From NCBI GenBank assembly GCA_028873925.1, contig JAPPNA010000070.1:13821-77820 (forward strand): a DNA stretch of 64,000 bases, read 5' to 3'. The position numbers and the translations under genes are program-made. Below the pieces are notes generated by a model. It had not been told where the DNA came from. It did no database searches and saw nothing but the letters and a program-made list of their open reading frames with translations. Within the stretch, counting starts at the first letter, position 1. Each line of letters starts with the position of its first letter. This document shows positions 751 to 18,000 of this stretch, piece after piece. The stretch is from Bacteroidota bacterium (lineage in GTDB: Bacteria > Bacteroidota > Rhodothermia > Rhodothermales > Bin80).

Positions 751-904
751 TTGAGGTTCAGCTCCGAAGTGATTGCCGAATATACCGACTGGCCGGGTCA
801 GCTGCACACGCCAGGCGGCTATCCGGTAGCAGGCGCAGCATCTTCCGGCCATTGGGTAAATTACGAGGGCGGATTGGGCCTTCAGGTGATCAGCTCCAGG
901 TAAT

Positions 905-1654: not shown

Positions 1655-1739
1655 AAGCCGAACAACTGGTCATCGATCAACCTATATTTTGAGCATACCG
1701 CCTGGCGCGGTGCATCCTGAAATCCAGCGTGAAATCCCC

Positions 1740-3299
1740 ATGGCATCCGCCTCAACTGAATCCAGGCCCCCGGGTATCGTCGACCGATTCCTGGGCGGTA
1801 TTGAGATGGTCGGCAATAAGCTGCCGGATCCGTCCATGCTCTTCCTGTTCTCCTTGGTGATCATTTGGATCCTCTCGGCTCTGATGTCGGGCATGACCTT
1901 CGAATCGGTCATTGATCCGCGCACGAATGCCCCATTGATGGTGAACAACCTGCTCTCGGGTTCGGAGCTTACCAGCTTTCTGGCCCGGATGGTCGGGATC
2001 TTCACGGGTTTTGCCCCGCTGGGCGTGGTGCTGGTGGCGATGCTGGGTGTTGGGGTGGCCGATGAGGCGGGCTATTTCAATACGGGTATTAAGCTGCTGT
2101 TGTCCAAGACATCACTCAGTCTGCTGACACCGGTAGTGATTCTGGTTGGGCTGATCAGCCACAGTGCCGTAGATGCCGGGTATGTGCTGGTGATACCATT
2201 GGGCGGTGTCATATTCTATGCCGCGGGCCGACATCCGCTGGCGGGCATTGCCGCGGCTTTTGCCGGTGTGTCGGGCGGGTTCAGCGCGAACCCGCTTCCT
2301 TCCGCACTGGATCCGCTGCTGCAGGGCTTTACCCAGCCGGCAGCCCAGATCCTGGATCCGGCTATTCTGGTCAATCCGCTGTGCAACTATTTCTTCACGG
2401 CCGCCTCCAGCATCCTCATCATCGCGCTGGGATGGTTCGTAACCGACCGTATCGTGGAGCCCCGGCTTAACAAGAATACGCCGGTTGATAAGGACGCAGA
2501 TGAGGCACCCCAGATGGATACCATTGAGGCACGCGAAAAACGGGCGTTCTGGTGGGCGACGGGGACGCTGGTGGTCGGGCTGATCATCTTGGTGCTTACC
2601 CTGCTGCCGGCTGAGTCGCCGTTCCGTGACGCGGAGGGATCCCTGAATTCGTTCCAGGCCCCGATCATGCAGTCCATTGTGCCGCTGATATTCCTGCTGT
2701 TTCTGATACCGGGCGTGGTCTATGGGTATGTGGGCGGCATATTCAGGAAGTCCAAGGACATGGTGGATGCCATGACCAAAGCTATGCACGGCATGTCTTA
2801 CTATATCGTGATGGCGTTTTTCTGCGCCCTGTTCGTGCACGCGTTTGGAGAGTCCAATATCGGGGCACTGTTGGCCCTCAAGGGGGCTGCGCTGCTGCAG
2901 GCTATGGCCCTGCCGGGCACGATAACCATCTTCGGCATCATCCTGCTGACGGCGTTTGTCAATCTGTTTGTCGGGTCGGCATCCGCCAAATGGGCGCTGC
3001 TGGCCCCCATATTTGTGCCGATGCTGATGCAGGTGGGGATTTCGCCGGACCTGACGCAGGCGGCCTACCGCATTGGAGATTCTTCGTCCAACATCATCAC
3101 GCCGCTGATGCCGTATTTCCCGCTGGTGGTCGTGTACTGTCAGAAATACGTCAAGAAAACCGGGATCGGCACCCTCACCTCATTCATGATTCCGTATTCA
3201 GTGACGTTTCTGCTGATCTGGACGGGATTCCTGGTGGCCTATTGGCTGCTGGGCTTCCCGCTGGGATTGGGCGCATCCTACACTTATCCGCCAATGTAG
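1740..3299 (+). CDS. AbgT-family (p-aminobenzoyl-glutamate-type) transporter
   Basis: The N-terminus 'FLGGIEMVGNKLPDPSMLFLFSLVIIW', the multi-TM body and the ~520-aa length are typical of AbgT. I moved the start from 1614 to the in-frame ATG at 1740, because the upstream 42 codons overlap the previous gene and look non-protein-like. Confidence 0.85.
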   Translation: MASASTESRPPGIVDRFLGGIEMVGNKLPDPSMLFLFSLVIIWILSALMSGMTFESVIDPRTNAPLMVNNLLSGSELTSFLARMVGIFTGFAPLGVVLVAMLGVGVADEAGYFNTGIKLLLSKTSLSLLTPVVILVGLISHSAVDAGYVLVIPLGGVIFYAAGRHPLAGIAAAFAGVSGGFSANPLPSALDPLLQGFTQPAAQILDPAILVNPLCNYFFTAASSILIIALGWFVTDRIVEPRLNKNTPVDKDADEAPQMDTIEAREKRAFWWATGTLVVGLIILVLTLLPAESPFRDAEGSLNSFQAPIMQSIVPLIFLLFLIPGVVYGYVGGIFRKSKDMVDAMTKAMHGMSYYIVMAFFCALFVHAFGESNIGALLALKGAALLQAMALPGTITIFGIILLTAFVNLFVGSASAKWALLAPIFVPMLMQVGISPDLTQAAYRIGDSSSNIITPLMPYFPLVVVYCQKYVKKTGIGTLTSFMIPYSVTFLLIWTGFLVAYWLLGFPLGLGASYTYPPM

Positions 3300-3361
3300 A
3301 CATGGCTAGGTCGTTTCTGGTTCGAGTGGCGGGTTCAATGCTGCGCGGGTTTTTACGCGCC

Positions 3362-4036
3362 TTACTGCGGAGCGCTTTCAGACGATAGCTTCGGTTCAGG
3401 AGATGGGTCGATCAGCTGAAACCGCACCGGAAGGCGCATCCGTACGCGCACGGATCGGCCGTCGTGCTGACCCGGGATAAACCTGGTACGGCGCAGGGCC
3501 TGCACCGCAGCCGAATCGCATAGCGGATGCAAAGGTTGGGTTACCCCAATATGGCTGGTGGAGCCATCCGTATTGACCGTAAAGGTCAGCTGAAGCTGTC
3601 CCTCAATTCCCTGCTCAATGGCTTCCTGAGGGTATTCGATGTGGACATAGTAGGCACCGATTCCGCCTGGAATAGCGGGCATCAGCTCAGCATGGTCCAG
3701 CACGGGGAGTTTTTCCGTGACAGCCTCTCGGGCGGATTGTGCCGAAGTCGTATCTATCAACGCAACGGGGGCACTCTCCTCGCTCCGGTCGTGGTGACGT
3801 TCGGCGGAGGATCCGGTGGTGTTGGTCTGCGCATGCCAGGCAATCAGCGGCACCTCCTCTCTGAGCAGTTCAACCAGAATTAAGCCATCCGAGTGCGCAA
3901 AGCGCGGGTTGGTCCAGCCTACCGGGTGGGGATCCTGACGGATCGGAATCCTGAAGCACGCGATAGCCAGCAGCAGCGCCAGGACCAGGCAGGCCATGAG
4001 GCGCAGCGAGTAATTCTGCGCGGCGCGGGAATACAT
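3362..4036 (-). CDS. Energy transducer TonB-family protein
   Basis: It has an N-terminal TM anchor and a C-terminal TonB domain: 'YPQEAIEQGIEGQLQLTFTVNTDGSTSHIGV...CDSAAVQALRRTRFIPG'. Confidence 0.8.
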   Translation of the reverse strand: MYSRAAQNYSLRLMACLVLALLLAIACFRIPIRQDPHPVGWTNPRFAHSDGLILVELLREEVPLIAWHAQTNTTGSSAERHHDRSEESAPVALIDTTSAQSAREAVTEKLPVLDHAELMPAIPGGIGAYYVHIEYPQEAIEQGIEGQLQLTFTVNTDGSTSHIGVTQPLHPLCDSAAVQALRRTRFIPGQHDGRSVRVRMRLPVRFQLIDPSPEPKLSSESAPQ

Positions 4037-4094
4037 TGCCTCAAAAGCATCGTTAAACTGTTATATGCCGTGAGGCTGCGTATTTGTTGCATTC

Positions 4095-5087
4095 ATGAGG
4101 CAGAGAGATTATCGTGCACTGGTGCTCCAGGCCTCCGGCCAGCCCGTCCTGCAATTGATGCAGACGGATGCGCTGGCGGAGAGGGACCTGAGGGTCCAGG
4201 TACGGTATTCCGGGATCAACTATAAGGACGCGCTGGCTGTTACCGGTGCCGCAAAAATCATTCGGGGTGAGTACCCGTTTATCCCGGGCATTGATCTGGT
4301 CGGTACGGTACGCGAATCGGGCGTGAATCAGTTCAATCCGGGCGATCAAGTGATCCTGACCGGCGGCGGGTTGGGGGAGTCAGTCTGGGGCGGGTACGCC
4401 GAACTGCAGAGTATTGACAGTCACTTTGTGGTAAGGTTACCTGATCGCATGAGCGGGCGTACGAGCATGATCCTGGGAACAGCCGGGTTGACGGCCATGC
4501 TGTCGGTGATGGCACTCCAAGAGCACGGCGTTACCCGTGGGGAAATAATTGTGACCGGAGCTTCCGGCGGAGTTGGCCTGATTGCCGTGTACCTGCTGAC
4601 TCAATTGGGTTACGATGTGATGGCATCCTGCGGCAGTAGGCATCTTGATCACAAGCTAAGCGCACTTGGTGCGAAAGGCATTATCGGCCGGCTGACTGCA
4701 GATCCAGAACGTCTGCTGCACAGGGGGCGTTGGGATGGGGCGGTGGATGCCGCTGGCGGTCCTTCACTGAGTGCGCTCCTGCCGCAGATCCGACATCATG
4801 GTTGCGTCGCTGCCAGCGGCAATGCGGCGGGTGCGGCTTTGCAGACGACCGTATATCCGTTTATTCTGCGCGGGGTTACCCTGGCCGGGATTGACTCAAA
4901 TACGGCCGCACCCAAGAACCGCGAGGCAGCATGGGACCGACTTACCGACCTGATCAGTGCGGAGGCGGCCGAAATGATGGTCATGTCCACGGTGACCCTT
5001 AACGATATCCCCAGCGTATGCCGGGCCAAGCTGGCAGGACAGGCCCCCGGCCGATTCCTTGTGGATGTGGGCATTCCAAGTCTTTAG
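4095..5087 (+). CDS. acuI: YhdH/AcuI-type NADPH-dependent acrylyl-CoA/quinone oxidoreductase (MDR superfamily)
   Basis: Colinear with E. coli YhdH as I recall it: 'VRYSGINYKDALAVTGAAKIIRGEYPFIPGIDLVGTV', 'ILGTAGLTAMLSV', 'IIVTGASGGVG', 'GCVAASGNAAG'. Confidence 0.85.
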   Translation: MRQRDYRALVLQASGQPVLQLMQTDALAERDLRVQVRYSGINYKDALAVTGAAKIIRGEYPFIPGIDLVGTVRESGVNQFNPGDQVILTGGGLGESVWGGYAELQSIDSHFVVRLPDRMSGRTSMILGTAGLTAMLSVMALQEHGVTRGEIIVTGASGGVGLIAVYLLTQLGYDVMASCGSRHLDHKLSALGAKGIIGRLTADPERLLHRGRWDGAVDAAGGPSLSALLPQIRHHGCVAASGNAAGAALQTTVYPFILRGVTLAGIDSNTAAPKNREAAWDRLTDLISAEAAEMMVMSTVTLNDIPSVCRAKLAGQAPGRFLVDVGIPSL

Positions 5088-5184
5088 TGTGGTTGCCTAC
5101 CGTCTGAGGACAAAAGCATCATAGGGCATTCCCAGCCCTTAGTTGGCCTGGCGGCGTGCAGGTTTCGGCGGTTTCGGCAGCGGA

Positions 5185-5772
5185 TCAAGGGTCAGCGTCA
5201 CCCGAGTCCACGGCCAGCGCGGATAGGAATTCCTTCAATGGCTTGATCGCGGGAGCGTCCAAATTCCAATAATCCCTGTTCAGATAGTCCCGTTCAGCTG
5301 GCTGTGGGGGCGTTCTGACCGCGAGGCAGTACGCATAGATTTTCGCCTTTCCAAGCGGAAGCTCGTAGGGTCCGGTGAGTTCGCCCAGGCATGATTTGTA
5401 CCGCTCAAAGCAGTTCATGACCGCACGATGTTCTGAAGGGACCGATTGCTCCAGCAGCGTCTCCAGGCAGCCGGCATCGGCATCATTGGGAATAAGGAAC
5501 GAGCTGCTTACTTCAACTTCAAGTGCGTCCAGCTCCCGCTCAAGTCCGGCTCTCTGCTCCGCGGGATTCTCGTCAGCGTCCAAGATGATGGCCACATCTT
5601 TTCCCGCCTCTCTCGCCCGGCGTATTGGCAAAGCGACCAGCCTGAGTGCAGGTATACCTCCACCGATGACCCTTACTTCAATGTCTTCGGCAAGCCCGAA
5701 ATCGTCCAGCAGGCAATTCATGAACCGCTGGTCGCTGGGCCCTTCCACATACACAACGGCTTTCGCCACCAT
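5185..5772 (-). CDS. Small TOPRIM-like protein (DUF4276/DUF3226/DUF4435-like), partner of the upstream ABC ATPase
   Basis: Starts 'MVAKAVVYVEGPSDQRFM' (conserved Glu in a beta-strand followed by E-G) and later has 'VAIILDADENP' (DxD), which is the TOPRIM E...DxD arrangement. Its ATG at 5772..5770 overlaps the ATPase stop codon by one nucleotide (TGATG). The exact Pfam family was not determined. Confidence 0.6.
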   Translation of the reverse strand: MVAKAVVYVEGPSDQRFMNCLLDDFGLAEDIEVRVIGGGIPALRLVALPIRRAREAGKDVAIILDADENPAEQRAGLERELDALEVEVSSSFLIPNDADAGCLETLLEQSVPSEHRAVMNCFERYKSCLGELTGPYELPLGKAKIYAYCLAVRTPPQPAERDYLNRDYWNLDAPAIKPLKEFLSALAVDSGDADP

Positions 5773-6860
5773 CACCTGATTTCGATTCGGTGCTGCACGC
5801 AATGGTCAAATTGCTCGTGGTCATAATTGTAGGCGATCACTTTGCCGTGCCTGTTTTTGGCCAGAACGAAACACCTTACGTCCTCCCTGATAGGCAACAA
5901 CCCATCACGCTGCAATAGGCTTTGCAGCCGGATCAGTACATCGAGGCTGTGAGCGGTGGCGAAAAATTGAATGTTGCGTTTTCCTGAGATTGAGAGCAGA
6001 GCCTCAAGAAGACACTCAACGCCTTCATGGTGAAGACCGTTTTCAATCTCATCAATGAGCATAATGTGTATGGCACCTGACAGGGCAGTAGAGTACAGAT
6101 GGGCAGCCCGGACTAAGCCGTTTCCCAGTGTTTTCAGGGGCATCATCTTCTTGAGACCGATATCAACATACACGGTCTGACCCACCACAGCCATGCGATC
6201 TATATCCGGACTAATCTGACGCAGGACCTCCAACAGTTCCTGATCTAACTTGTTGATCAGGATTTCCTGCACGGCTTCCCCACTGGAATTTGCCTGCGCG
6301 CTGATGAACGCTGCTGGTATGAGGAGCGACTCCGAGTCAGCCGATGGGGCCGAAAATCGGATGCCCTCGTTAGGCATCCACTCCAACTCCCCCTTGATGC
6401 TGCTGGGGTCACCGCCGTTTAAGGCTGCCACTTGAGCATCATAGTAGATCGTCCGGGAGCCGGCGACTTTGGAACTTAAAGGTTGATACTGCCGGGGCAA
6501 TATCCGACCACGCTCTCCGTCCCCGTTGGAATGCCGCCCGATGAGCGTGGAATCGGAGCGTTTAACTGCTCCACCATTTGCGGAGTCGGCTGATATCTTA
6601 AGCCATCGCGTACCACCACCGCGACGCATTGTCGCTGATAACTCTATTGTAGACCTCGTGTTGAGGTTGCGAAACAGAGATTCCAAAGTCTCAATCGATT
6701 GCGCATCAAGTTGGCGCGCGCTCTGGACCACACTGGGCAACTGGATATTGGTAGGTCCGGTGAGCAGAAAAATGGCTTCCAGCAGCGAGGTCTTGCCCAC
6801 ATTATTGGCTCCCAGAATCAGATTGAACATACCTATCCCGTCCAGCTCAACATCTGCCAA
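5772..6860 (-). CDS. ABC/AAA_21-type (OLD/SMC-like) ATPase, copy A
   Basis: Walker A 'LGANNVGKTSLLEAI', Walker B plus D-loop 'IMLIDEIENGLHH', H-loop 'FFATAHS'. The only available start is TTG at 6860. Conserved coding sequence continues 48 nt further upstream but has no start codon and is closed by a TGA (see findings). Confidence 0.7.
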   Translation of the reverse strand: MADVELDGIGMFNLILGANNVGKTSLLEAIFLLTGPTNIQLPSVVQSARQLDAQSIETLESLFRNLNTRSTIELSATMRRGGGTRWLKISADSANGGAVKRSDSTLIGRHSNGDGERGRILPRQYQPLSSKVAGSRTIYYDAQVAALNGGDPSSIKGELEWMPNEGIRFSAPSADSESLLIPAAFISAQANSSGEAVQEILINKLDQELLEVLRQISPDIDRMAVVGQTVYVDIGLKKMMPLKTLGNGLVRAAHLYSTALSGAIHIMLIDEIENGLHHEGVECLLEALLSISGKRNIQFFATAHSLDVLIRLQSLLQRDGLLPIREDVRCFVLAKNRHGKVIAYNYDHEQFDHCVQHRIEIR

Positions 6861-6938
6861 CCCCTTGTATTGGCGTATGCGAAACGACTCAAAACTCTGG
6901 TGAATGGCTCAATTGATCTGCCTGGACAAGCGTATACG

Positions 6939-7529
6939 TCATTCCATCAGCAGAGTTCCACCGATCAAGTTGGGCGCAGATTGAATACTTCGTGTGTGAT
7001 CCACGATGCATCGCCCGCACGCAGGTATCCCGGCCTTCACTGGCTGCTGCCTGCGGGTTGGGCGTTTTCCGGCAGCAGGACTACCTTTACGTACTGGGTT
7101 GGTGAGATACTGATTGGCGGCCTGACGCAGATGGTCCGTATCAATGTTATCCAGCAGGTTGATGAGTTCGGGAATATCCTCCAGGTTCAGGGCATCATCT
7201 TCAATGTACCCCCTGAGGGCACCCGCCCACAAGCTGTTCTGCTCCATACCGGTTTCGTGATCGCGGCGGTACTGGGCCTTGGTCGTTTCCAGATACGGGG
7301 TCAGGTCCAAGTCAGTCCGAATATCCTTGACTTCATCCAATACCACCCGGGTAAGCTGCTCCACCCGGTCGGGGGCACTCCCGAAAAAGATGTTGAGGCT
7401 GTACTTGTCCTCAGGCAGTTTGGTCAGAGTGCCGTTGACTGCCGCGCCGTACACACCGGACCGCGCCTCCCGCAGTTCCTCCCGCAGGCGGATGTCTAGG
7501 ACGCGCACCAAGCCCCTGACCGCCATCAC
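6939..7529 (-). pseudogene. Duplicated 3' fragment of the M16 peptidase gene (lacks about the first 775 codons; +1 indel near the end)
   Basis: Segment 7101-7510 aligns without gaps to 8868-9277; I counted 384/410 identical bases by hand. The residues 'LVRVLDIRLREELREARSGVY...HLRQAANQYLT' match the C-terminus of the 937-aa peptidase. After 'QYLT' the fragment reads AACCCAGTACG where the full gene reads GATCAGTACG, which shifts the frame. Confidence 0.85.
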
Positions 7530-8701
7530 CTGATTTCGATTCCGTGCTGAATGCAGTGGTTGAATTTCTGGTGGTCATACCTGTATGCAATCACCTTGCC
7601 ATCCTTATTCTTGGCCAGTACGTAGCATCTCATTTCCGACCTGGCATCCGATAAACGGTCCTCTAGTAGGAGGCCCTGAAGCTGCTGGAGAACATCCAGG
7701 CTATGAGAGGTGGCAAAAATCTGCAAATTCTGCTCATAAGTTAGCGTTATGAGGGCTTCAAGAAAACTGGTCATGGCCGTGTGATGAAGACCGTTCTCAA
7801 TCTCGTCAATCAGAATTATCTGCGACTTACCGGAAAGGGCCGTAGAGTACACATTGGCGACCTGCGCCAGGCCGCTTCCAAATGTGTTGAGCGGCATCAT
7901 CTTCCCCAGTCCGATGTCGGCGTAGACTATCTGATCGATGACTGAAATCCGTTCAATCGCCGGATTGACTTGGTGTAGCACATGCGAGAGATCCCGATCC
8001 AGTTTGTTAACAACGACTTCACGGAGGGTCTCTCTCCGGTAGCTGGCCAGTGTATTTACAAATATGGCTGGAATCAGTAATGCCTCGTTTTCCATCCCCT
8101 AGGACGAATAGCGGATCCCCTCACTTGAAGAATAATCCAACTCGGCTACTGCATTGACGGGTTTCTGACCGTTTTTTCCAGCGACACGCACCTCATACTG
8201 AAGCCTTTCGGGTGCAGCTGGCATGGAAGTGAAAGCTGCGCTTGAACCGGACAAGGCAGGGCTGTAAGGCTGGCCTCCTGCGCGGGCGTGCCTTTGAGAC
8301 ATGGGTGTTGATCCAATTTGTATTCCGCCATTTGTTGAACCGGTAGATATCTTGAGGTCGCGGAATTCATCACAATCCCGCATAGAGGCCGAGATTTCAA
8401 TGGTAGAGCCTGTGTCCAGATTGCGGAAGATTGACTCAATAACTCCAAATGACACCGGGTCCAGCTGACGCATAGCCTGCACAACCCCTGGCAAACGGAT
8501 ATTGGAGAGCCCTGTGAGCAGAAAAATTGCCTCAAGTACGGATGTCTTGCCCACATCGTTGGCCCCCACGAGCAAATTGAACGAGCCCATCTCGTCCAAC
8601 GAAACATCTTCCAGCCCCTTGTACTGGCGAATTCGGAGTGACCTGAAGCTGCGGCGGATGTCGCTGACCGTTGGTGAACAGGCATCCTTACGATGAGGCA
8701 C
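7526..8701 (-). pseudogene. ABC/AAA_21-type ATPase, copy B, interrupted by an in-frame TAG (8101..8099)
   Basis: ORFs 8099..8701 (N-terminal half, 'LLVGANDVGKTSVLEAI') and 7526..8095 (C-terminal half, 'IILIDEIENGLHH', 'IFATSHS') are in the same frame and colinear with copy A. They are separated only by TAG-GGG-ATG. No TOPRIM partner follows. Confidence 0.75.
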
Positions 8702-8804
8702 TATACAGGTTCGCTCGGATTCCCGGCACTCACCGATAGCTTCATGCTATTGGATCTATGTCAAGCTCAGGAAGGCGATGCCGGGGCCGTTGCGTATCGG
8801 GCCT

Positions 8805-11618
8805 TCACCGGCTGCTGCCTGCAGGCTGGGCGTTTTCCGGCAGCAGTACCACCTTTACGTACTGATCGGTGAGATACTGGTTGGCGGCCTGACGCAGATG
8901 GTCCGTATCAATGTGATCCAGCAGGTTGATGAGTTCGGGAATGTCCTCCAGGTTCAGGGCATCATCTTCAATGTACCCCTTGAGGGCACCCGCCCAGAAG
9001 CTGTTCTGCTCCATGCCGGTTTCGTGATCGCGGCGGTACTGGGCCTTGGTCTTTTCCAGATACGGGGTCAGGTCCAAGTCAGTTTGAATGGCCTTGATTT
9101 CATCGAATACCACCTGAGTAAGCTCCTCCACCCGGTCAGGGGCACTCCCGAAAAAGATGTTGATGCTGTACTTGCCCTTAGGCAGTTTGGTCAGAGCGCC
9201 GTTGACTGACGCGCTGTACACACCGGACCGCGCCTCCCGTAGTTCCTCCCGCAGGCGAATGTCCAGGACGCGCACCAGGGCCTTGAGCAGATAGCTTCTG
9301 TCATGGGAATACTCCGCAGCTCCGTGAAAAGCCAGGACGGTCTGCGCGCGTTCCTCCAGCCCCTTGCGGACCACCCGGGTGATGGTCCCTTTCGGTGAAG
9401 GCCGGGAGCGGTCAACCCACAATTCGTTTCGTCCCGTAGCAGGCAGGGCACCCAAATACCGCTCCGCCAGACCGCGCACATGGTTAGGATCAAAATTGCC
9501 GACCAGTATAAACGTAAAATCGCCCATGTCGGCAAATCGATCGCGATAGAAGCGTAACGCCGCGTCTCGGTCAATGCCATCCAGCAGCTCAGCAGTCAGC
9601 GGGCGATGCCGCGGGTCATCCGGAAACAGGGCCTTTAAGAGCGTATCATGGAATACGGACGATGGCAGTGCCTCCCGATTCGCAAGCATGGCCCGCTGGT
9701 GATTCTGAAAATACACAATCGCGGACTCGTCCAGCCGGGGCTGGGTGGCATAGAGGTAAATCAGCTGGAACATGATTTCCAGATCCGCCGGTGCGGCCCG
9801 CGCGGAAAAGCCTTCGCTCAGCGCGCCGATCACGGGAGTCACCGACACCATATGTCCGGTCAGCTTTTTGACAAGCGCAGATCTGTCAAAGTCGCCTACG
9901 CCACTGCGCTTCACCAGTATGTCCGCCAGGGTTGCATTCAGGTAATGGTCGTCGTCGGCTAATGAGCTCCCGCCGGGACTGAAGGCCTGCAGGAGAATCT
10001 CGTCGTTCTTGTAATCGGTGGGCTTGAGCACCACCCGCGGTCCGTTGGAGAGCGTTAGCATGGTCACATCCAGCGATTCAATGCACTCAACTTCCACCAC
10101 CTTACCGCCCGGCGGCATCGGACCGATCAGCGGAAGGTCCGAGTCAGTGTCTACATAGGGCGTGGGAGCAGACACATCGATTTCGTGCAAGACAGCCAGA
10201 AGATCTTCTTCAGATGGCGGGGTCAGATCGTCTCGCTCGGGCAATGTGGCAACCACCAGGCGGCCGCTACCCTGCAAATGAAACTCCAGCGCGCGATTGG
10301 CTTCCTGCAAGGTGATTTGCGGCAGGATCGACTGTGCCACCTCGTACATATACGTAGGCCCCATGATGGGGGCCTGGGTCAGGTAGTGTTGTACCATTTC
10401 CCATGCATGGGTACGACTGGGGGTCGTATCGTGCTCATTGGCTTCCCGTTCAAATGCACGCAGCAGCTGACGCTTCTGGCGTGCAAGCTCGCCCTCGGTA
10501 AAGCCGTGGTCTAGTGCCCGTTTGGATTCCAGCATCATGGCCCTAAAGCCGGAAATCAGACTGTCTTCGGCCACCTGGCAGGCTACGGTATAGGCCTTCA
10601 GGGGGCGGATCAGTTTGCTGGTGGTGGCACGCGCCCACAGGAACGGTGCACTTGTGCCGTCACGTGCGATTTCCGCGAATCTCCGGTTGAGCATACCCCG
10701 CGCCAACAGTCCGACCAGCCGACGGCGGATGTCGGTGATCGTCCGGGCGGGGGCTGATGGCCGGTGGGTCCCCACCTCAATCAACACAGTTGGCGTTTCC
10801 GGATCGGTGATGACTTTGACATGCGTTTCTTCGCTGGTAGAGATGTGAAACGTAGGCCTGGGGACGGGTGACTCTTCGGCAGCCCAGTCGTCAAAGTACT
10901 GCCGGATGAGTGCTTCCGAGGTTTCAACGGGCAGGTCGCCCACCACCACGACCGCCATCAGATCCGGCCGGTACCAGGTTTTGTAGAAGCGGGTGAGCGC
11001 TTCCGGTGTTCCGTTGTTGATAGTCAGGGTGTCGCCGATAGGCAGGCGTTGGGCATACTGCGAATCCCGCAGGACCAGCGGAAGGGTCTTCTCCAGAATG
11101 CGGCTCTGCGCTCCCAGCCGGGCACGCCATTCTTCCAATATGACACCGCGCTCGGCCTCAATCTCGGCGCGATCAAAGAGCCCGTTGGAGGCCCATTCAC
11201 GCAGCACTGCAAATCCCGTCCGCAGCACGTCCTGGCTGTCGGTGGGTACTTCAAGCATGTATACGGTTTCATCAAAAGAAGTGTAGGCATTGACATCCGG
11301 TCCGAACGTCATCCCGGCGAGCTCAAAGAAATCAATCAGATCCTGTTTCGGGAAGCGGACCGTTCCATTAAACAGCATGTGCTCCACAAAGTGGGCCATG
11401 CCAAGTTGATCCTCATCTTCCAGGACGCTCCCGGCATTGACCACCAGGCGGAGTTCCGCCCGGTCCTGGGGCTCACTGTTCTGACGAACGAAATAGGTCA
11501 GGCCGTTCTCCAGGGTGCCGACGGTGATCATCGGATCCGTCGGCAGCGGCTGTGCCTGGAGGAGGTGTGCGGCAAAAGTCATTGCGAGTGCGCCTGGTGT
11601 TGCCCATTTCATGGCCAA
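8805..11618 (-). CDS. M16-family (pitrilysin/insulinase-like) zinc peptidase, secreted, double-unit
   Basis: 937 aa with a signal peptide and the inverted zinc motif HxxEH in 'GMAHFVEHMLFNGT'. Its length is consistent with fused active and inactive M16 halves. Confidence 0.9.
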   Translation of the reverse strand: MAMKWATPGALAMTFAAHLLQAQPLPTDPMITVGTLENGLTYFVRQNSEPQDRAELRLVVNAGSVLEDEDQLGMAHFVEHMLFNGTVRFPKQDLIDFFELAGMTFGPDVNAYTSFDETVYMLEVPTDSQDVLRTGFAVLREWASNGLFDRAEIEAERGVILEEWRARLGAQSRILEKTLPLVLRDSQYAQRLPIGDTLTINNGTPEALTRFYKTWYRPDLMAVVVVGDLPVETSEALIRQYFDDWAAEESPVPRPTFHISTSEETHVKVITDPETPTVLIEVGTHRPSAPARTITDIRRRLVGLLARGMLNRRFAEIARDGTSAPFLWARATTSKLIRPLKAYTVACQVAEDSLISGFRAMMLESKRALDHGFTEGELARQKRQLLRAFEREANEHDTTPSRTHAWEMVQHYLTQAPIMGPTYMYEVAQSILPQITLQEANRALEFHLQGSGRLVVATLPERDDLTPPSEEDLLAVLHEIDVSAPTPYVDTDSDLPLIGPMPPGGKVVEVECIESLDVTMLTLSNGPRVVLKPTDYKNDEILLQAFSPGGSSLADDDHYLNATLADILVKRSGVGDFDRSALVKKLTGHMVSVTPVIGALSEGFSARAAPADLEIMFQLIYLYATQPRLDESAIVYFQNHQRAMLANREALPSSVFHDTLLKALFPDDPRHRPLTAELLDGIDRDAALRFYRDRFADMGDFTFILVGNFDPNHVRGLAERYLGALPATGRNELWVDRSRPSPKGTITRVVRKGLEERAQTVLAFHGAAEYSHDRSYLLKALVRVLDIRLREELREARSGVYSASVNGALTKLPKGKYSINIFFGSAPDRVEELTQVVFDEIKAIQTDLDLTPYLEKTKAQYRRDHETGMEQNSFWAGALKGYIEDDALNLEDIPELINLLDHIDTDHLRQAANQYLTDQYVKVVLLPENAQPAGSSR

Positions 11619-11660
11619 CTGATTATAATGCGGTAATCGTCGAATAATACGCCGATCCGT

Positions 11661-12875
11661 ATGACTTTATTCATGTGCAGGGTTTTCCGGTGCGGATATA
11701 TTTCCACATCACTCTTTGCGGCCGGCCTTCTGGCCCTGATCAGCGGCTCCACAGCGCACGCACAGGTGGAGGTATGGGTGGAAGGGGGACAGGAAGATCG
11801 ACCGGTAGCCGTAGTCACTTTTACCGTGGCGGGCGTGTCCGGCTCATGGCATGCGGTGGATTCGCTGGGCCGTACGGCATCGATGCAGGTCTCCCGCAGC
11901 GGGCAGGCTCAACTGGTGTTGGCGGACCTGCGTGCGGGCGAGAGACGCTGGCTGCACCTGCGCCCGGCCGTGGCAGCCCGCCCGCGTGTGATCGTAGAGC
12001 GGGCGGGACATCTCGCATCATTCCGCGTAGACGATCGGCCGATGATGGCGTACCACATGGAAAAAGGTCCCATGCCGCGGTCGGACATTGACTCCATCTA
12101 TCATCGGGCAGGATATTTGCATCCGGTGTATACCCCGGGTGGAAGGCTGGTCACCGATGACTATCCTCCAAATCACATACACCATCATGGTATCTGGGCG
12201 GCTTGGACGCGGACGCGATTCCAAGGAAGAACACCGGACTTCTGGAACATGGGTCGCGGAACCGGACGTGTGGATGTCAGCTCAATAGACAGCTTATGGA
12301 GCGGTGCGGTATCCGGCGGAGTGCGGGCTGAACACCGGTATGTTGATCTGGCAGGCCGGACGGTGGCCCTCTACGAAACCTGGCAGGTGGAGGCCTACGC
12401 GACCGAACTGCCGTTGAATATTTTTGATTTGACCCTGTGGCAGCGGACGGCCGGCGACAGTGCATTGTCGCTGTCTGAGCACCTGTACGGAGGTATGGGC
12501 TTACGTGGGCACCGGGATTGGAATGGGGAGGAACACGCGGATTTCCTAACCTCGGAGGGGCGCACCCGCGCGGACGGACACGCTACCCGCGCACGCTGGT
12601 GCCATGTGGGTGGCTGGGTGGAGGGCGAACGCGTCGGCATTGCTGTGCTGGGGCATCCGGATAATTTGGAGGCACCGCAGCCCATGCGCATTCATCCGTC
12701 AGAGCCGTTCTTCAACTATGCTCCGTCCCAGGCCGGTGAATTCCACATCCGGCCAGGCACCGTTACCCGATGGCGTTACCGGTTTGTCACTTATGACGGG
12801 CCGCCCGATCCGCTGCTGCTGGAGGCGCTGTGGACGGACTTCGCGCAGCCTGCGCGCGTTTCAATAGTGAACTGA
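11661..12875 (+). CDS. PmoA-family / DUF6807-like protein
   Basis: Signal peptide plus 'YLHPVYTPGGRLVTDDYPPNHIHHHGIWAAW', a His-rich motif I associate with DUF6807 (PmoA-like) proteins. Recalled, not searched. Confidence 0.6.
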   Translation: MTLFMCRVFRCGYISTSLFAAGLLALISGSTAHAQVEVWVEGGQEDRPVAVVTFTVAGVSGSWHAVDSLGRTASMQVSRSGQAQLVLADLRAGERRWLHLRPAVAARPRVIVERAGHLASFRVDDRPMMAYHMEKGPMPRSDIDSIYHRAGYLHPVYTPGGRLVTDDYPPNHIHHHGIWAAWTRTRFQGRTPDFWNMGRGTGRVDVSSIDSLWSGAVSGGVRAEHRYVDLAGRTVALYETWQVEAYATELPLNIFDLTLWQRTAGDSALSLSEHLYGGMGLRGHRDWNGEEHADFLTSEGRTRADGHATRARWCHVGGWVEGERVGIAVLGHPDNLEAPQPMRIHPSEPFFNYAPSQAGEFHIRPGTVTRWRYRFVTYDGPPDPLLLEALWTDFAQPARVSIVN

Positions 12876-12879
12876 GGCC

Positions 12880-14571
12880 ATGCATTTGCTCAAGCGAACG
12901 GTATATGATGCGATCGTAGTCGGTACCGGCATGTCGGGAGGCTGGGCCATGAAGGAGCTGTGTGAAAAAGGTCTCAATACGCTTGTGCTGGAGCGGGGGC
13001 GCATGGTGCGGCACATTACCGACTACGTTACCGAGCACAAGAATTCCTGGGAGCTGCCGCACCGCGGTCGGGTGCCCCCGGCGGTAGTCAGGTCAGATTA
13101 TCAGGTGCAAAGCAAGACCTACGTTTTCAGTGAGGCGACGCGCCATTTCTTTATGCGGGATTCCGATCATCCGTACGTCCAGCAGGAGCCGTACACCTGG
13201 ATTCAGGCCGATGTGGTCGGCGGCCGATCACTGATGTGGGCCCGGCAGAGTTATCGCTGGAGCCCCATGGATTTTGAGGCGAATCTGCGTGATGGACATG
13301 GGGTGGACTGGCCGATCCGCTATGCGGACATCGCGCCCTGGTACGATTATATTGAGCGCTCCATTGGGGTCAGCGGGCAGGCGGAAGGACTGCCTCAGCT
13401 GCCGGATGGCATCTTCCAGCCCCCCATGGAAATGAACGCGGTGGAGAAGCGGCTCAAAGCGCGTGTGGAGGCGACCTTCCCCGAGCGCACCGTAACCATC
13501 GGTCGCACCGCCACTCTGACGCGTGCGCTCAACGGACGCGCGGCCTGTCATTACTGCGGCCCCTGCGAACGGGGCTGTTCCACCAGCTCCTACTACAGCA
13601 CGGTCAGCGTAGCGCTGCCGGCGGCTCAGGCCACCGGCAACCTTACGTTACGCCCGAGGAGCCTGGTCTGCAGGGTGCTGTATGACGCGGGTACCGGCCG
13701 CGCCACCAGCGTGGAGGCGATTGACTTAAGCACAGACGAGCGACGCACCTATTCCGCCCGCATGGTCTTTCTCTGCGCATCTTCGATGAACACGGCCCGG
13801 ATCATGCTGCTGTCCAGGTGCCCGGATTTTCCGGACGGGATCGCCAATTCCAGCGGTACGCTGGGTCGCTACCTGATGGATCACCACTACCATGTGGGAG
13901 CGAACGCGGTGTTTGAGGGATTTGAGGATCGGTATTACCGGGGTAACCGCCCAAACGGGATCTATGTGCCGCGCTTCCGCAATATCAGCCCCGAAACCGT
14001 GCGGGAGGACTTTGTGCGCGGATACGGATTCCAAGGATCTGCGAGCCGTAGCGGCTGGAACCGCCGCCTGCGCGGATTCGGTGCCAAACTCAAGCACGCC
14101 CTGCGCACGCCCGGGCAATGGACGATGGGGTTGGGGGCCTTTGGCGAGACGCTGCCGCGTTATGACAATTACTGCGAACTGGATCCTGAAGTCACGGACC
14201 GGTGGGGACTGCCCGTTCTGCGGTTTCATGTAACGCGCGACGATAACGACCGAGCCATGCGCAGGGACATGATGGCTACAGCTGCGGAAATGCTCCACGC
14301 TGCTGGCGCAGCCAGTGTTACGCCATATGATACCTGGCAGGATGCCCCCGGACTCGGCAACCATGAAATGGGGGCAGCACGCATGGGGCGCAACCCGGAA
14401 ACCAGCGTACTCAACGGCTGGAATCAGTGTCACGATGTTCGCAACCTGTTTGTCACCGATGGGGCCTGCATGACATCGTCGGCCTGCCAGAATCCTTCAC
14501 TGACGTACCTGGCCCTTACCGCGCGCGCCTGTGACTATGCCGTGCGGCAGCTGGCCGACGGGCAGCTATAG
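12880..14571 (+). CDS. GMC-family FAD-dependent oxidoreductase
   Basis: N-terminal Rossmann motif 'YDAIVVGTGMSGGWAMKELCEKGLNTLVLERG' and the C-terminal GMC segment 'GNHEMGAARMG...NLFVTDGA'. Confidence 0.9.
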   Translation: MHLLKRTVYDAIVVGTGMSGGWAMKELCEKGLNTLVLERGRMVRHITDYVTEHKNSWELPHRGRVPPAVVRSDYQVQSKTYVFSEATRHFFMRDSDHPYVQQEPYTWIQADVVGGRSLMWARQSYRWSPMDFEANLRDGHGVDWPIRYADIAPWYDYIERSIGVSGQAEGLPQLPDGIFQPPMEMNAVEKRLKARVEATFPERTVTIGRTATLTRALNGRAACHYCGPCERGCSTSSYYSTVSVALPAAQATGNLTLRPRSLVCRVLYDAGTGRATSVEAIDLSTDERRTYSARMVFLCASSMNTARIMLLSRCPDFPDGIANSSGTLGRYLMDHHYHVGANAVFEGFEDRYYRGNRPNGIYVPRFRNISPETVREDFVRGYGFQGSASRSGWNRRLRGFGAKLKHALRTPGQWTMGLGAFGETLPRYDNYCELDPEVTDRWGLPVLRFHVTRDDNDRAMRRDMMATAAEMLHAAGAASVTPYDTWQDAPGLGNHEMGAARMGRNPETSVLNGWNQCHDVRNLFVTDGACMTSSACQNPSLTYLALTARACDYAVRQLADGQL

Positions 14572-14608
14572 TGCCATACCGAATGTTAGGTACAAACCGC
14601 TGAGGGTG

Positions 14609-15034
14609 ATGGGGTGCGATAAACAGGGATTGCGGATCCGGTCCCTTTTCTTCCTGCCGCTGCTGCTGGCCTCATTGTGGGCTGTCCCAACCGAGGCGCA
14701 GGATTCGCTTTCCGTTGAAGCTCTGATGAACAGTCTTTCTGATGGCGATGAAGAGACGTTGCTGGCTTGGGCCGGCCCGCGCGTCGAGCTCGCGCTGCTG
14801 GGTCAGCGGCGCCGATATACACGAGCCCAGGCCACCCATGTACTCCGGGATTTCTTTCAGCGCTATCCCCCCGAGGACTTTCAGGTGGATCACAGCCTTT
14901 CTCAGCAGGAAGATTGGTGGCTCACGGGAAGTTTTCTGATTCGTTACAATGGGGAGCGGATGCGGGTGTATCTCAGATTCCGCGGCACCTATCCTGTGTA
15001 TCAACTGCTTGCGATCCAGATTATTCGGGAATGA
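14609..15034 (+). CDS. Small secreted protein, DUF4783-like
   Basis: Starting at ATG 14609 gives the signal peptide 'LFFLPLLLASLWAVPTEAQ'. The body 'LRDFFQRYPPEDFQVDH...RVYLRFRGTYPVYQLLAIQI' resembles DUF4783 (recalled). Its stop overlaps the kinase start (ATGA). Confidence 0.5.
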   Translation: MGCDKQGLRIRSLFFLPLLLASLWAVPTEAQDSLSVEALMNSLSDGDEETLLAWAGPRVELALLGQRRRYTRAQATHVLRDFFQRYPPEDFQVDHSLSQQEDWWLTGSFLIRYNGERMRVYLRFRGTYPVYQLLAIQIIRE

Positions 15035-18000
15035 TGCGGGCACATCTGGCAAGAAATTCATCTCTGCTGGTGGTGCTGTCTTTGCTCGTAATTCTGAGCA
15101 TTACTTGGGGGCTGCGTAGCTGGCGTGTGGCGACCGTTCACTCGGATGTCTCCCAGCGGCAGGAAGCGGCAGTCAACGCGGCGGCCGAGCAGATCCGAGC
15201 GAATTTTGAAGGTCTCCAGCACTCAATGCTCGCGCTGGCCGCGGATGTGGCCGGTGACCTCCTTGTGGCGGAAGTGCTGGGATCATCTGACACCGTGCCG
15301 AGCGAAACACTGCTTCGTTCGCTGGACGCGCTGGATCTACCTCCGCGCCATGCCATTGCCTGTTTCACTTCTCAGATGGACCTGATCGCGTGGAAGGGGG
15401 TGAGTATCCCAGGGTCCGCACAGGTCACACAGATCCCTGCACAGGTGCATTGGGCGACCGCGCAGGATGGCGGTTGGCGGGATGCCCTGGTGGTATGGCA
15501 TCCGGTATTTGATGGCGGAAGGCAGGTTGGTGCGGTCAGGCTGACGCAGTTGTTGTTTGAGCGTCTGCCGGTCCAGAACGAATCTCTGCGCAACTATTCG
15601 GTAACAGATGACTGGGCCCGCCGGGTGGAGCTGCCGGTCAGTCTGATTCTTGGCGCAGCGGCGGACTCCACCTTCGCGCTCAGTTCGCTGAGAGGCGATA
15701 CGTTGGCCGGGCTGACCATCCTGCCCCCGACCGCTGCGGGGCTGATTGAGGTCGCATCCAAGCCGTATGACAGTCTAGCGGCCCTTTGGCTCACATTGCT
15801 GACGCTCTGGGTTGTACTGGTGCTGTGGAAGCGGCATGGCAATCATGCCAGTACACCGCGGCTGCTGATGCTGTCTGCTGCGGTCATCGGCGGCAGGTAC
15901 TTACTGTTGGAATTGGATGTACCGGCCCGTTTCCAGACGGGCAAGGCACCGCTGAGTCCGCTGTTTGACCCGGTGCACCACGCATCCACCCTGGGAGAGG
16001 GGCTTATGCGCTCTTCCGGTGATTTTCTGCTTTCGGCCCTGTGTCTGCTGGTACTCGCGGTAGCGGTCACCCGGCATGCGATGCGTCGCCGGCCTTCGCC
16101 TGTTCAGTCATTCACCTACACGACGGCATGGTCTATCCGAATGACGGCGGCAGCGCTGGCCACGGTTGCGCTGACCTGCGTGCTTGCGGCTGCGGTCCAT
16201 GCCAGCGTGTTTGACAGCACATTGGATTACGTTACGCGCAGCGATCTGCTGCCGGTCCCGCTGGAATTTGTCGTTTTCGGCGCGCTGGCCATTGCATCGC
16301 TCGCTACGCTGCTGCTGGCGGCCGGAATGGTGCGTCTGGCCAGCGGATCCGGCCGACTGCGCCTTACCTGGTACATCGTGACCCCGGTCCTGGCTGCTTC
16401 CATGGTTATGGCCCTGGCCACAGAACAGCAGTGGTGTCCCTGGTACGTGAGTGCGGCCTATCTGGTCGCAGGCGCATGGCTGGCCCGGCGGCTGACCTCG
16501 GAACAGTCAGCGGACTGGTTGTCGGTACGTCAGGTGCTCCTTGCCGTGCTCATGGTGAGCCTGTTGGTGTATCCACTGTTTTACCGCGGAATCAGTCAGC
16601 GAAAACAGGAGCAGGTCGCTTATGCGGCCGCTTCGTTTGAGACGGGCGACGAGCCGGGCATTTCCTTTGCCGTACGTGAGGTCGTGGAGGAAGCGCTCCG
16701 CCGCAACGAGCTGCCCGCGCTGCTGGAGGCAGATGCAGAGCTGGACTCTATGGCCGCCAGTCTTTTGCAGGGCACCTTACTGGCTTCACTGACATCATAT
16801 GATGCGAGCGTAGCCTTCTTGAACGCCGGCGGCGGGCTGCTGCATGTTTCCGGGCAGGGGGCGGATTCGGCCGGAATCATGGAGCTGTTTGGACAGATGC
16901 GACCGGAACAGGGACTCCTTGAGAGCACCTACAACTTTATTGAGCCTCTGATGCCCGGGACCCACCGCCATCAGTATGCCGGGATGAGCAATATCGGTGT
17001 GCCGGTACGCGGATGGATTCTCGTGCAGGCGCGGCCTCACATTGTTCTTGAAGAGGCTAACACTCCGCTGCTGCGCACGCTCCTGTCGTCCGGATACCGG
17101 CACCTGTACACCGGGCTGTCCCTGGCTTCGTTCCGTGATGGACTGCTGGTGCGCAGTGTCGGGCGCAGCTTTGAACGTTATGAGCTGGATGCGCAGGCCG
17201 CAGCAGCCCTGCAGGCATCGCCGGAAATCTGGCGGACCGAACAGATCCGCGGGCGCACCTATGATACCTACTACCATCAGATAAACGGTCAGGTGGTGGC
17301 CGCCCGATTACGTGTGATCGGGCTGACCGACCATCTGTACTATTTGCTGCGGTTGATGTCTGGAGGTTTTCTGGCTGGCATTCTGGTGATACTGGTGGGG
17401 CTGGTCTGGCGGTGGCGTGCGGGCCAGCTGCCAGCCTCCCGGGTCTACTTCCGGGACCGGGTGCTGAATGCCTTTATACTGGTGGGCGTGCTGGCGGTGA
17501 TACCGGTGGGCATTGGGGGAGTGGGGGTGATTACCGAGGAAAACGAAAAGGCGGTGCAGAGCTGGCTGCGTCAGCACCTCCAGCGTGTTGAAGAGACCCT
17601 GGAGAGCGAAGCGCGCCCGGGAGAGAGCAGCCTAAACGTCCTGAGTCGTATCAGTATTGACGCGCTGGCTGCCCGCTCCGGCCTGGATTTGAACCTCTAC
17701 CGCGGAGCCAGCCTGATTGCGGCCAGCCGTCCGCAGCTGATTACCGACCGTATCATTGATACGCGACTGCCTGCGTCGGTGTACCGCGCGCTGTATTTCG
17801 ATGCCGACCGTTTTACCTTCGTGGACCACCGGCTGGGCGACTTCACCTATACCGCCGGGTATCGGGCGATCCTGGATGAGGCCGGTCGGCCCCGCTATGT
17901 ACTTTCGGTGCCGGCATTGCCGGAGGCGGAGCGCATTGAAGAGGAGCGCGCACGCACGCTGGCCTACCTGTTCGGTGCGCTGCTGGCGCTCGGCATGATT

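Follow-up and report, generated by a model that had tools for sequence, protein, structure and literature searches.

How can two adjacent parts of what looks like one tandem duplication be of such different ages? The question is raised by a locus from an uncultured Rhodothermales-like Bacteroidota lineage, which lies in a stretch of 64,000 nucleotides (GenBank assembly GCA_028873925.1, contig JAPPNA010000070.1, positions 13,821 to 77,820 of the forward strand). We refer to this whole stretch as the window, and coordinates are those of the window unless another contig is named. Read on the minus strand, the locus consists of a gene for an M16 family peptidase, ATPase B, a copy of the peptidase tail, ATPase A and a DUF3226 gene that encodes a TOPRIM/OLD-nuclease-like putative effector. 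Both ATPases are AbiLi-like and of the ABC type. Here, we show that the two copies of the peptidase tail separated recently, whereas the two ATPases beside them are anciently diverged. We propose, with moderate confidence, that a recent illegitimate recombination, with homology on one side only, stacked two old alleles of an AbiL/PDC-M38-like module.

Structure of the stacked locus

All the features described in this section are on the minus strand. The full-length peptidase gene (8805..11618) matches Pfam Peptidase_M16 (1.3e-28) and Peptidase_M16_C (3.9e-36). It has 937 codons from the first possible start, while gene callers take the ATG at 11582 and give a protein of 925 residues. Seven database entries contain a protein 99-100% identical to its product, after which the closest relatives follow at 78%, 72% and 71% identity. 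The functional 3' end of this gene is the first copy of the repeat (8800..9277), which takes in codons ~780-937, the stop codon at 8807-8805 and 5 further bases, and is 93% identical to 7032-7510. The spacer between the peptidase stop codon and ATPase B (8702..8799 past the repeat) is 103 nt long. The ~30 nt next to the peptidase gene are its ancestral flank: positions 8807-8775 match, at 85%, the 33 nt 3' of the peptidase stop in L087, a contig of the nearest species. ATPase B (7526..8701; PADLOC AbiLi, Pfam AAA_15/AAA_21) is a pseudogene in the window, with an in-frame TAG at 8101-8099.

The stop codon of B overlaps an ATG (TGATGGCGGTCA...) in the novel junction at 7511..7528, which leads into the second copy of the repeat (7032..7510). 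This copy is a displaced fragment of the last ~158 peptidase codons with a +1 insertion and frameshift near 7097, and the changes polarised with an outgroup (see below) mark it as a pseudogene. A spacer of ~125 nt (6906..7031), unlike the one 5' of B, separates the fragment from ATPase A (5772..6905), which is intact and matches PADLOC AbiLi (1.5e-48) and Pfam AAA_21 (1.3e-15). The DUF3226 gene (5185..5772; Pfam DUF3226 7.7e-17, PADLOC PDC-M38B 6.6e-7) comes last, and its ATG overlaps the stop codon of ATPase A by 4 nt (TGATG).

With P for the peptidase gene, A and B for the ATPases and T for the TOPRIM-like DUF3226 gene, this is the layout P5'-(P3'-A)-(P3'-A)-T with one novel junction, which a first-pass annotation of the window had proposed and which our comparison confirms. 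Direct repeats pair 7101-7400 with 8868-9167 (94% identity, spacing 1767), 7032-7096 with 8800-8864 (92%, spacing 1768) and 5766-5889 with 7520-7643 (77%, spacing 1754), and the junction at 7511-7528 is the only one.

The stacked layout recurs in five independent assemblies (contigs L081, L083, L085 and L086, with L095 covering part of it). The sequence of L081 equals that of window positions 1-15772. The whole structure is spanned by L083 (JGI 3300009933), L085 (ENA ERZ25069580) and L086 (ENA ERZ23495530), in which 0.4-1.3% of sites differ from the window, while L095 (JGI 3300009939) covers the peptidase gene and part of B.

The peptidase copies are young and the ATPases are old

BLASTN comparison of the two units showed 92.4% identity over 488 nt in the peptidase part, 68% over 495 nt in the 3' half of the ATPases and 75% over 159 nt at their 5' end. 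By direct count, the peptidase copies differ by 33 mismatches and one 1-nt insertion in 473 nt. This amounts to 93.0% identity and bears out the near-identity (about 94%) counted by hand in the first-pass annotation, whose figure of 104 identical residues among 184 in the C-terminal halves of the ATPases was reproduced exactly. Over their whole length, A and B are 52-53% identical as proteins and 61% as DNA, the latter being much lower than the 93.0% of the peptidase part, as had been noted for the C-terminal halves.

Divergence is not uniform across the unit. In a global MAFFT alignment read in windows of 60 nt, identity is 83-98% from 9277 to ~8800, a few bases past the peptidase stop codon. 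There is then an abrupt drop, to 30-42%, in the intergenic part, and values range from 32 to 83% through the ATPases, whose middle part is the most variable stretch (32-55%). The similarity of the repeat ends sharply 5-8 nt after the stop codon of the peptidase gene. Beyond this point, the alignment score of the two spacers equals the mean of shuffled sequences (p = 0.59), and the spacers have no similarity beyond shuffles.

The two parts also differ at sites where selection on the protein has little say. Between the full and the fragmentary peptidase copies, synonymous divergence (dS) is 0.086, divergence at four-fold sites (K4) is 0.08 and identity at four-fold sites is 0.92. Between ATPases A and B, dS is 2.6-2.7 and hence saturated, K4 is 1.56, and identity is 0.40 at third positions and 0.34 at four-fold sites. 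These A-B values match those of A or B compared with ATPases of unrelated genomes, and those of the window compared with its relatives at 71-72% peptidase identity. The window and L087, whose peptidase is 78% identical in amino acids, have a dS of 0.68-0.70 and a K4 of 0.55 in the peptidase gene, and a dS of 0.60 and a K4 of 0.42 in the acuI-like gene on the other side of the locus.

The common ancestor of the ATPase pair lies at least 20-30 times further back than that of the peptidase pair, and it also predates the split between the window and L087. The modules, whether inserted or resident, are much older than the anchor that was duplicated, and their spacers are unalignable. The argument that one old duplication could not leave its parts so unequal is upheld by these values (dS 0.09 against ~2.7). 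What had been described as halves that diverged at different rates is a real inequality, but it is better read as a difference in coalescence time: the halves differ in when they last shared an ancestor and not in their rate of divergence.

A single novel junction

The junction was read from a three-way alignment of P, the junction itself and the A-T sequence. It tracks the A-T sequence up to GGTGATGG.GG and the peptidase sequence from TGGTGCGCG onward. At the crossover, 9 of 12 nt are the same in the peptidase gene as at the start of the DUF3226 gene (AAGGCCCTGGTG / AAAGCCGTTGTG); this microhomology pairs peptidase codons ~778-781 with TOPRIM codons 3-7. Directly 3' of the stop codon of B stands ATGGCGGTCA, the first ~10 nt of a DUF3226-type gene, with the same TGATG overlap as between A and T. 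The alignment suggests that the two sequences were joined at the microhomology and that B probably once had its own TOPRIM gene on its 3' side. We call this gene T(B), to distinguish it from the gene T(A) that follows ATPase A. Past the first ~10 nt, no surviving T(B) sequence was found.

The displaced peptidase tail decays neutrally

To see how each copy of the peptidase tail has changed, the 37 differences between the full gene and the fragment were polarised with the L087 sequence as outgroup. The fragment carries the derived state at 23 of them, which fall on the three codon positions as 7:6:9 (the +1 insertion is included among the 23), and the full gene at 12, distributed as 2:3:7; two were not polarised by L087. 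The even spread in the fragment, together with its frameshift, shows that the fragment decays neutrally, and the skew towards third positions shows that the full gene is constrained. At the protein level, we used seven peptidase homologues of 78% to ~50% identity as outgroups. Outside the junction columns, the fragment is derived at 12 of the 18 amino acid differences, with at least five of the seven homologues agreeing with the full gene, and six of these 12 positions are invariant in all seven homologues.

The change at third positions of the full gene (7 of ~160) matches the overall change in the fragment (23/480), which fits a single date for the split of the two copies. These patterns indicate that the fragment was already a pseudogene for nearly all of the period that separates it from the full copy. 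The two tails were therefore nearly identical when the structure arose, with little or no constrained divergence between them before one lost its function. The full-gene type of tail is found in all seven database members of the peptidase cluster.

An open reading frame (ORF) at 6939-7529 on the minus strand is called by gene callers as a protein of 195-196 residues and has no Pfam domain. We rejected it as a real gene, since it is the frameshifted peptidase fragment read into the spacer and has a neutral pattern of substitution.

The gap between the peptidase and acuI-like genes in related genomes

The right-hand flank of the locus is an acuI-like gene for a zinc-type alcohol dehydrogenase/reductase (4095..5087, plus strand; Pfam ADH_N, ADH_zinc_N), which is convergent with the cassette and conserved on this side of the variable site. 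In the relatives L087 and L094, the acuI-like gene directly adjoins the peptidase gene. The gap is clean in L094 (peptidase 71% identical), with 41 nt between the two stop codons. In L092 and L093 (72%), it holds insertion sequence (IS) elements and two small ORFs without Pfam match, and no trace of the ATPase-TOPRIM module was found in the gap of either. The IS transposase genes are of the DDE_Tnp_1, IS66 TnpB and IS110 types (L092 10785-14394, L093 10785-18784), and the content of the gap differs between these two assemblies of the same species.

A remnant of the module is present in L087. At 12812-13195 of this contig, in a site that had looked empty, the last ~75 codons of a DUF3226 gene remain; they begin ~25 nt 3' of the peptidase stop codon and happen to be in the peptidase frame. 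They correspond to residues 115-186 of the TOPRIM protein (57% amino acid identity, tblastn E 1.5e-24) and are closest to the DUF3226 protein of the window among known homologues. The remnant shows that this relative lost the module by deletion, and that the module was at the site before the lineages of the window and L087 split. Over the 72 codons that can be compared, the remnant and the window have a dS of 1.5, a K4 of 0.91 (19 sites) and a third-position identity of 0.53. These values fall between those of orthologues and those of A versus B, and fit a lost module of either the A or the B type.

The gap between the peptidase and acuI-like genes is a general variable spot. Comparison of the locus across related genomes, as the first-pass annotation had envisaged, thus bore out that the site varies among relatives, but turned up no single-cassette state. 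No genome with a peptidase identity between 78% and 99% was found. The best match in a scan of contigs of genomes with the peptidase was 45% identical, and a metagenome scan with an alignment of the peptidase tail returned no relatives.

Origin of the stacked locus

How could a young peptidase tail come to lie between two old ATPases? In this lineage, the site between the peptidase and acuI-like genes has long held a module of two genes, those of an ABC-type sensor ATPase and, translationally coupled to it on the 3' side, of a putative TOPRIM/OLD-like DUF3226 effector. We propose that two very old alleles of the module, A-T(A) and B-T(B), existed in chromosomes of the same species that had almost identical peptidase genes. 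The DNA of one haplotype would then have recombined recently with the other, homologously on one side and, on the other side, by an illegitimate join within the 12-nt microhomology between TOPRIM codons 3-7 and peptidase codons ~778-781. By recent we mean ~4-5% neutral change per lineage, or about one-eighth of the distance to the nearest sampled species. The process could have been homology-facilitated illegitimate recombination (HFIR) or, equivalently, an unequal crossover between haplotypes.

The product of such an event would be P5'-P3'-B-(first 10 nt of T(B))|P3'-A-T(A), which would mimic a tandem duplication while being built from two different cassettes. The second peptidase tail would have lost its function at the event and decayed neutrally since. 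ATPase B, deprived of its effector gene, would have remained an open frame for some time before it was knocked out independently in sublineages, leaving A-T as the sole complete module. An event of this kind would explain why the fragment is young, uniformly diverged and decaying when the cassettes are saturated and their spacers unrelated. It would also explain why similarity stops so sharply where the core gene ends, why a stub of a second TOPRIM gene is present and why the orphan ATPase decayed later. The first-pass annotation had offered, as one of three explanations, that ATPase cassettes were swapped in with the peptidase 3' end as homology arm. This explanation fits best, although not as a clean swap; the data rather point to a join that was homologous on one side and illegitimate on the other, so that both cassettes were stacked and a peptidase tail was displaced.

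Several points weigh against this proposal. The microhomology was judged with the surviving start of T(A) standing in for the lost T(B). A neighbour-joining tree places A and B as sisters (86% bootstrap), which is also what one would expect of an old duplication in place. The central 200 nt of the repeat have 6 differences where ~15 are expected; this is not significant after correction and could be a small conversion tract. An earlier step is needed that made two very different alleles flanked by near-identical core genes. Either B or A may have been the newcomer. Finally, no haplotype with a single cassette (P-B-T(B) or P-A-T) was seen, and all six population contigs that reach the region are either stacked or broken inside the repeat. 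Sampling was thin: no single-cassette donor haplotype was present in seven members of the peptidase cluster, four contigs with the DUF3226 protein, the ATPase searches and two metagenome scans.

The alternative that survives best, which we regard as unlikely yet deserving serious attention, is that [peptidase tail + spacer + ATPase + first TOPRIM codons] were duplicated in tandem and in place long ago, that the ATPases and spacers became saturated with changes, and that the non-functional fragment was meanwhile refreshed by repeated gene conversion from the peptidase gene, which is under selection, the last time ~5% of neutral divergence ago. Such a history predicts exactly one novel junction, as is found. 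The sister relationship of A and B agrees with it, as do their equal lengths of exactly 377 codons and the presence of the module at the site since before the L087 split. The block of high identity runs to the stop codon, the point at which the donor copy ceases to be under purifying selection. Two sites are compatible with small exchanges, namely 7176, which is tree-incongruent among the population fragments, and 8850, where the full gene of L085 carries the base of the fragment. They are too few to weigh, and the deficit of differences in the central 200 nt is, as said, not significant.

On the other hand, a useless fragment of 480 nt would have had to persist over a time exceeding 20-30 times its present divergence (dS >2.6 against 0.09), and many full re-conversions would have been needed while the direct repeats promoted deletion of B. 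Gene conversion between the peptidase gene and its fragment, the first explanation of the first-pass annotation, is supported by no test that we ran. The differences between the copies are not clustered (maximum chi-square permutation p = 0.14; the best internal segment of low difference is 9082-8882), and the longest identical run is 36 nt (p = 0.97), which is also a poor substrate for recombination. Identity is ~93% up to the left edge of the block, which is uneroded, and the last 76 nt are slightly more diverged (~12%), not significantly so. The changes in the fragment resemble uninterrupted neutral decay over its whole length. That the cassettes came from two haplotypes and not from one old duplication in place is therefore the reading that we would favour.

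A templated insertion seems quite improbable. Here, two complete modules would have stood in tandem for long, and a later break in T(B) would have been repaired by template switching that copied the peptidase tail, with two microhomology junctions. The remnant of a TOPRIM gene start after B, the youth and uniformity of the copied block and the microhomology at the left junction would all be accounted for. The second junction, however, would have to fall by coincidence 5-8 nt after the peptidase stop codon, nothing of T(B) survives beyond ~10 nt, and two complete modules in tandem were seen in none of the relatives or related pairs inspected.

It is very improbable that the unit was simply duplicated in tandem not long ago and that both ATPases then diverged very fast under diversifying selection. 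The first-pass annotation had named strong diversifying selection, as expected for immune sensors, among its explanations. Defence sensors often evolve fast, and the middle of the ATPases is indeed their most variable part. However, selection at the protein level cannot saturate synonymous sites, as they are between A and B (dS ~2.7, four-fold identity 0.34) next to peptidase copies with a dS of 0.09 and a four-fold identity of 0.92. The non-coding spacers, which differ in length, are unalignable as well. Because of these saturated sites and unalignable spacers, we reject diversifying selection as the main cause, and the A-B dN/dS of ~0.14 indicates purifying selection.

That two strain variants of one locus were collapsed or chained in assembly can practically be dismissed: the source is a metagenome, and two of the Logan contigs, both short, end within the repeat at window 7143 (as expected of de Bruijn graph assembly), but four assemblies (ENA ERZ23495468, ERZ25069580 and ERZ23495530, and JGI 3300009933) span both repeat copies in the same order yet differ at 0.4-1.3% of sites, with no difference at the junction among the four contigs that cross it.

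Comparison with known recombination processes

The event that we propose is of a known type. One-sided homology that leaves displaced orphans was proposed for the T6SS (type VI secretion system) effector-immunity arrays of Vibrio cholerae and for the 'C-terminal displacement' of Rhs genes (PMC5361080). As in T6SS arrays and at Rhs/CDI loci, an incoming variable module would here have been anchored by homology in a conserved upstream gene and joined illegitimately downstream (PMC5361080). The other module is left as an orphan beside a displaced 3' piece of the conserved gene, and the modules are far more diverged than the conserved anchor. Unlike in those cases, the anchor is an unrelated housekeeping-type peptidase gene and not part of a toxin system, and the orphan is a sensor ATPase minus its effector and not an immunity gene. 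There is also a single step here instead of an array, and the donor haplotype was not found among the contigs searched.

HFIR is known from the natural transformation of Acinetobacter, Pseudomonas stutzeri and Streptococcus pneumoniae and from conjugation in E. coli (PMC3240628, PMC5361080). It has a homologous anchor on one side, an illegitimate join at a short microhomology and an insertion of foreign DNA (PMC3240628, PMC5361080), and the locus resembles it in these respects. A junction with microhomology is present in our case (9/12 nt), with T(A) standing in for T(B). The difference is that HFIR is here inferred from a natural product, and that unequal crossover of sister or homologous chromosomes gives the same product.

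Duplicated segments of bacterial genes, for example the copies of tuf or of rRNA genes, undergo concerted evolution by gene conversion. The two copies of the peptidase tail are likewise direct repeats of ~480 nt, 1.3 kb apart, one of which is under selection, and they could exchange sequence. They differ from the tuf and rRNA copies in that no tract signal was detected and that one copy is non-functional, with an uninterrupted neutral pattern.

We would like to point out that no new mechanism is needed. The pattern of Rhs, CDI and T6SS loci would simply be extended to an AbiL/PDC-M38-like system in this lineage. The locus would be a natural snapshot of how a defence locus beside a core gene is rebuilt by a single illegitimate join, in which the displaced peptidase tail serves as a datable neutral marker and the orphan sensor gene is lost in parallel by sublineages. 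It suggests that what looks like a tandem duplication in a defence island can have arisen by the fusion of two haplotypes. The comparison of synonymous divergence between parts, combined with polarisation by an outgroup, can separate such a fusion from differences in rate.

Relatives and start codons of the ATPases

A and B form a clade with the ATPases P0127, P0130 and P0132 (100% bootstrap). The identity between A and B (52%) is barely above their identity to these three (49-51%), and our searches found no relative closer than ~50% for either. As is expected of mobile cassettes, the genomic contexts of P0127, P0130 and P0132 have nothing in common with the peptidase locus, and a DUF3226 partner is present in some and absent in others. 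The G+C content of ATPase A is 52.4% and that of ATPase B 51.4%, with a G+C content at third positions (GC3) of 0.58-0.60, compared with 58.2% for the window and 58.7% (GC3 0.69) for the peptidase gene. The lower G+C content of the ATPases fits a horizontally moving cassette. A metagenome scan with an alignment of the ATPases returned only relatives of at most 33% identity. The 362-residue form of ATPase A and the protein P0007 were not on record in an exact look-up, and a sequence search of the PDB with ATPase A gave no match.

Neither ATPase gene appears to start at a canonical codon. In ATPase A, no ATG, GTG or TTG lies 5' of the conserved first strand, which is encoded directly after a TGA (window 6911-6858, minus strand: TGA GCC ATT CAC CAG AGT TTT GAG TCG TTT CGC ATA CGC), and the first canonical start is the TTG at 6860. 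An Ile codon, ATT or ATC, occupies the same position in B (8662-8650, minus strand), P0130 and P0132 (L091 ~720-810, L089 ~7920-8010), and in the latter two an in-frame stop lies a few codons 5' of it. The 12 codons before the first TTG vary mainly at third positions, which indicates that they are translated. These observations point to a conserved non-canonical ATT/ATC start. The start of ATPase A would then be the ATT at 6905-6903 and that of B probably the ATC at 8659-8657, which makes both proteins exactly 377 codons long.

Parallel loss of ATPase B

The lesions in ATPase B differ among strains. At 8101, the CAG codon has become TAG in the window and in L083. L085 and L086 keep CAG at 8101 and have AAA changed to TAA at 8164, as does L095 according to its gene calls. 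Further lesions are a 1-nt deletion at 8295 in L086, a 1-nt insertion at 7663 in L085, which may be an error of a low-coverage assembly, and unrelated DNA that interrupts the gene near 7706-7736 in L095. It follows from these differing lesions that B was intact in the ancestor of the sampled population and was lost in parallel. ATPase B was inactivated recently and independently in different sublineages. We considered read-through or recoding of the TAG codon and rejected it, as other strains have CAG at 8101 and carry different lesions instead.

Was B under selection after it had lost its effector gene? In a simulation of a neutral ORF of 377 codons, the probability of no nonsense mutation at 4% divergence was ~0.25. 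The probability of no insertion or deletion in B is ~0.14, as estimated from the one such change in the fragment, and the two combined come to a few per cent. These figures hint, though only weakly, that selection kept acting on B for some time after the event. The ratio of non-synonymous to synonymous polymorphisms is ~0.4 in the peptidase gene and 1.2-1.5 in A, B and the TOPRIM gene.

It is conceivable, although improbable in our view, that the stacked locus served for a time as a system of two sensors and one effector, in which the orphan B, 52% identical to A, shared the single TOPRIM effector, kept its frame open through most of the ~4-5% of neutral divergence that followed the event and was discarded only recently and in parallel. 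A bolder version of this idea would be that the retained peptidase tail acts as a built-in homology arm for capturing further cassettes.

In L086, ATPase A is interrupted by unrelated sequence as well (8962-9015 of this contig, joining at window 6354), and the contig stops 54 nt further on. The interruption looks like an insertion sequence, and that strain would be without a working ATPase at the locus.

Relation of the module to known defence systems

The module appears, from its profile matches and gene order, to be an AbiL/PDC-M38-like pair of a sensor ATPase and a TOPRIM-like putative effector, and an anti-phage function would be expected from its family membership. ATPase A matches the PADLOC AbiLi profile PDLC02336 nearly end to end (E 1.5e-48; residues 3-362 against profile positions 15-340 of 340), and the two halves of B match it with E values of 8.6e-18 and 2.8e-32. 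Together with Pfam AAA_21 and AAA_15, these matches are those of an AbiL ATPase. ATPase A also matches the PDC-M38A models (E 1.1e-32 and 1.2e-31), and the DUF3226 protein matches PDC-M38B weakly (E 6.6e-7 and 3e-5). The order of PDC-M38, in which a PDC-M38A ATPase is followed by a PDC-M38B partner, is thus found here, with adjacent genes that overlap by TGATG and a weak match for the second.

As in AbiL, the partner of the ATPase is a small protein with a TOPRIM-like E...DxD signature: E10 (in VEG) and D65 (in an ILDAD motif) are invariant in seven homologues. It differs from the AbiL partner in being a DUF3226 protein, which has no match to the AbiLii profile in PADLOC and shares with AbiLii only a fold-level resemblance to the OLD TOPRIM region 6NJV. 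The relation to PARIS is more distant. AriA profiles match ATPase A only partially (8.4e-17 over residues 211-309), and the DUF3226 protein has no match to AriB/DUF4435. A review (2026) groups AbiL with PARIS as systems that pair an ABC ATPase with a TOPRIM protein, and superposes AbiLii on OLD 6NJV (PMC13064643).

The AlphaFold model of the DUF3226 protein has a mean pLDDT of 69. Its N-terminal 95 residues (~80-94) form a beta-alpha repeat, and its C-terminal half is poorly modelled. The best Foldseek matches of the model are to the TOPRIM region of Xanthomonas OLD (6NJV, E 8.8e-4, TM 0.42), followed by OLD 6NJX and 6NJW (E ~1e-3) and topoisomerase VI-A. The PARIS complex 8UX9 gives a weak fold match (E 0.057), and a PDB profile match to small TOPRIM proteins has an E of only 0.2. 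No paper on DUF3226 was found in a literature search.

Further features near the locus

A scan of 5000-9400 for promoters and terminators gave nothing that exceeded shuffled sequences. At the start of the window, a DEAD/ResIII helicase gene and a DprA/Fic-like gene occupy positions 1-750 on the minus strand and continue into L081 15023-18478. The pair sits between TMEM164-like and aminotransferase genes, is absent from this place in L087 and L094, and forms another insertion specific to the strain or species, ~5 kb away from the one at the peptidase gene.

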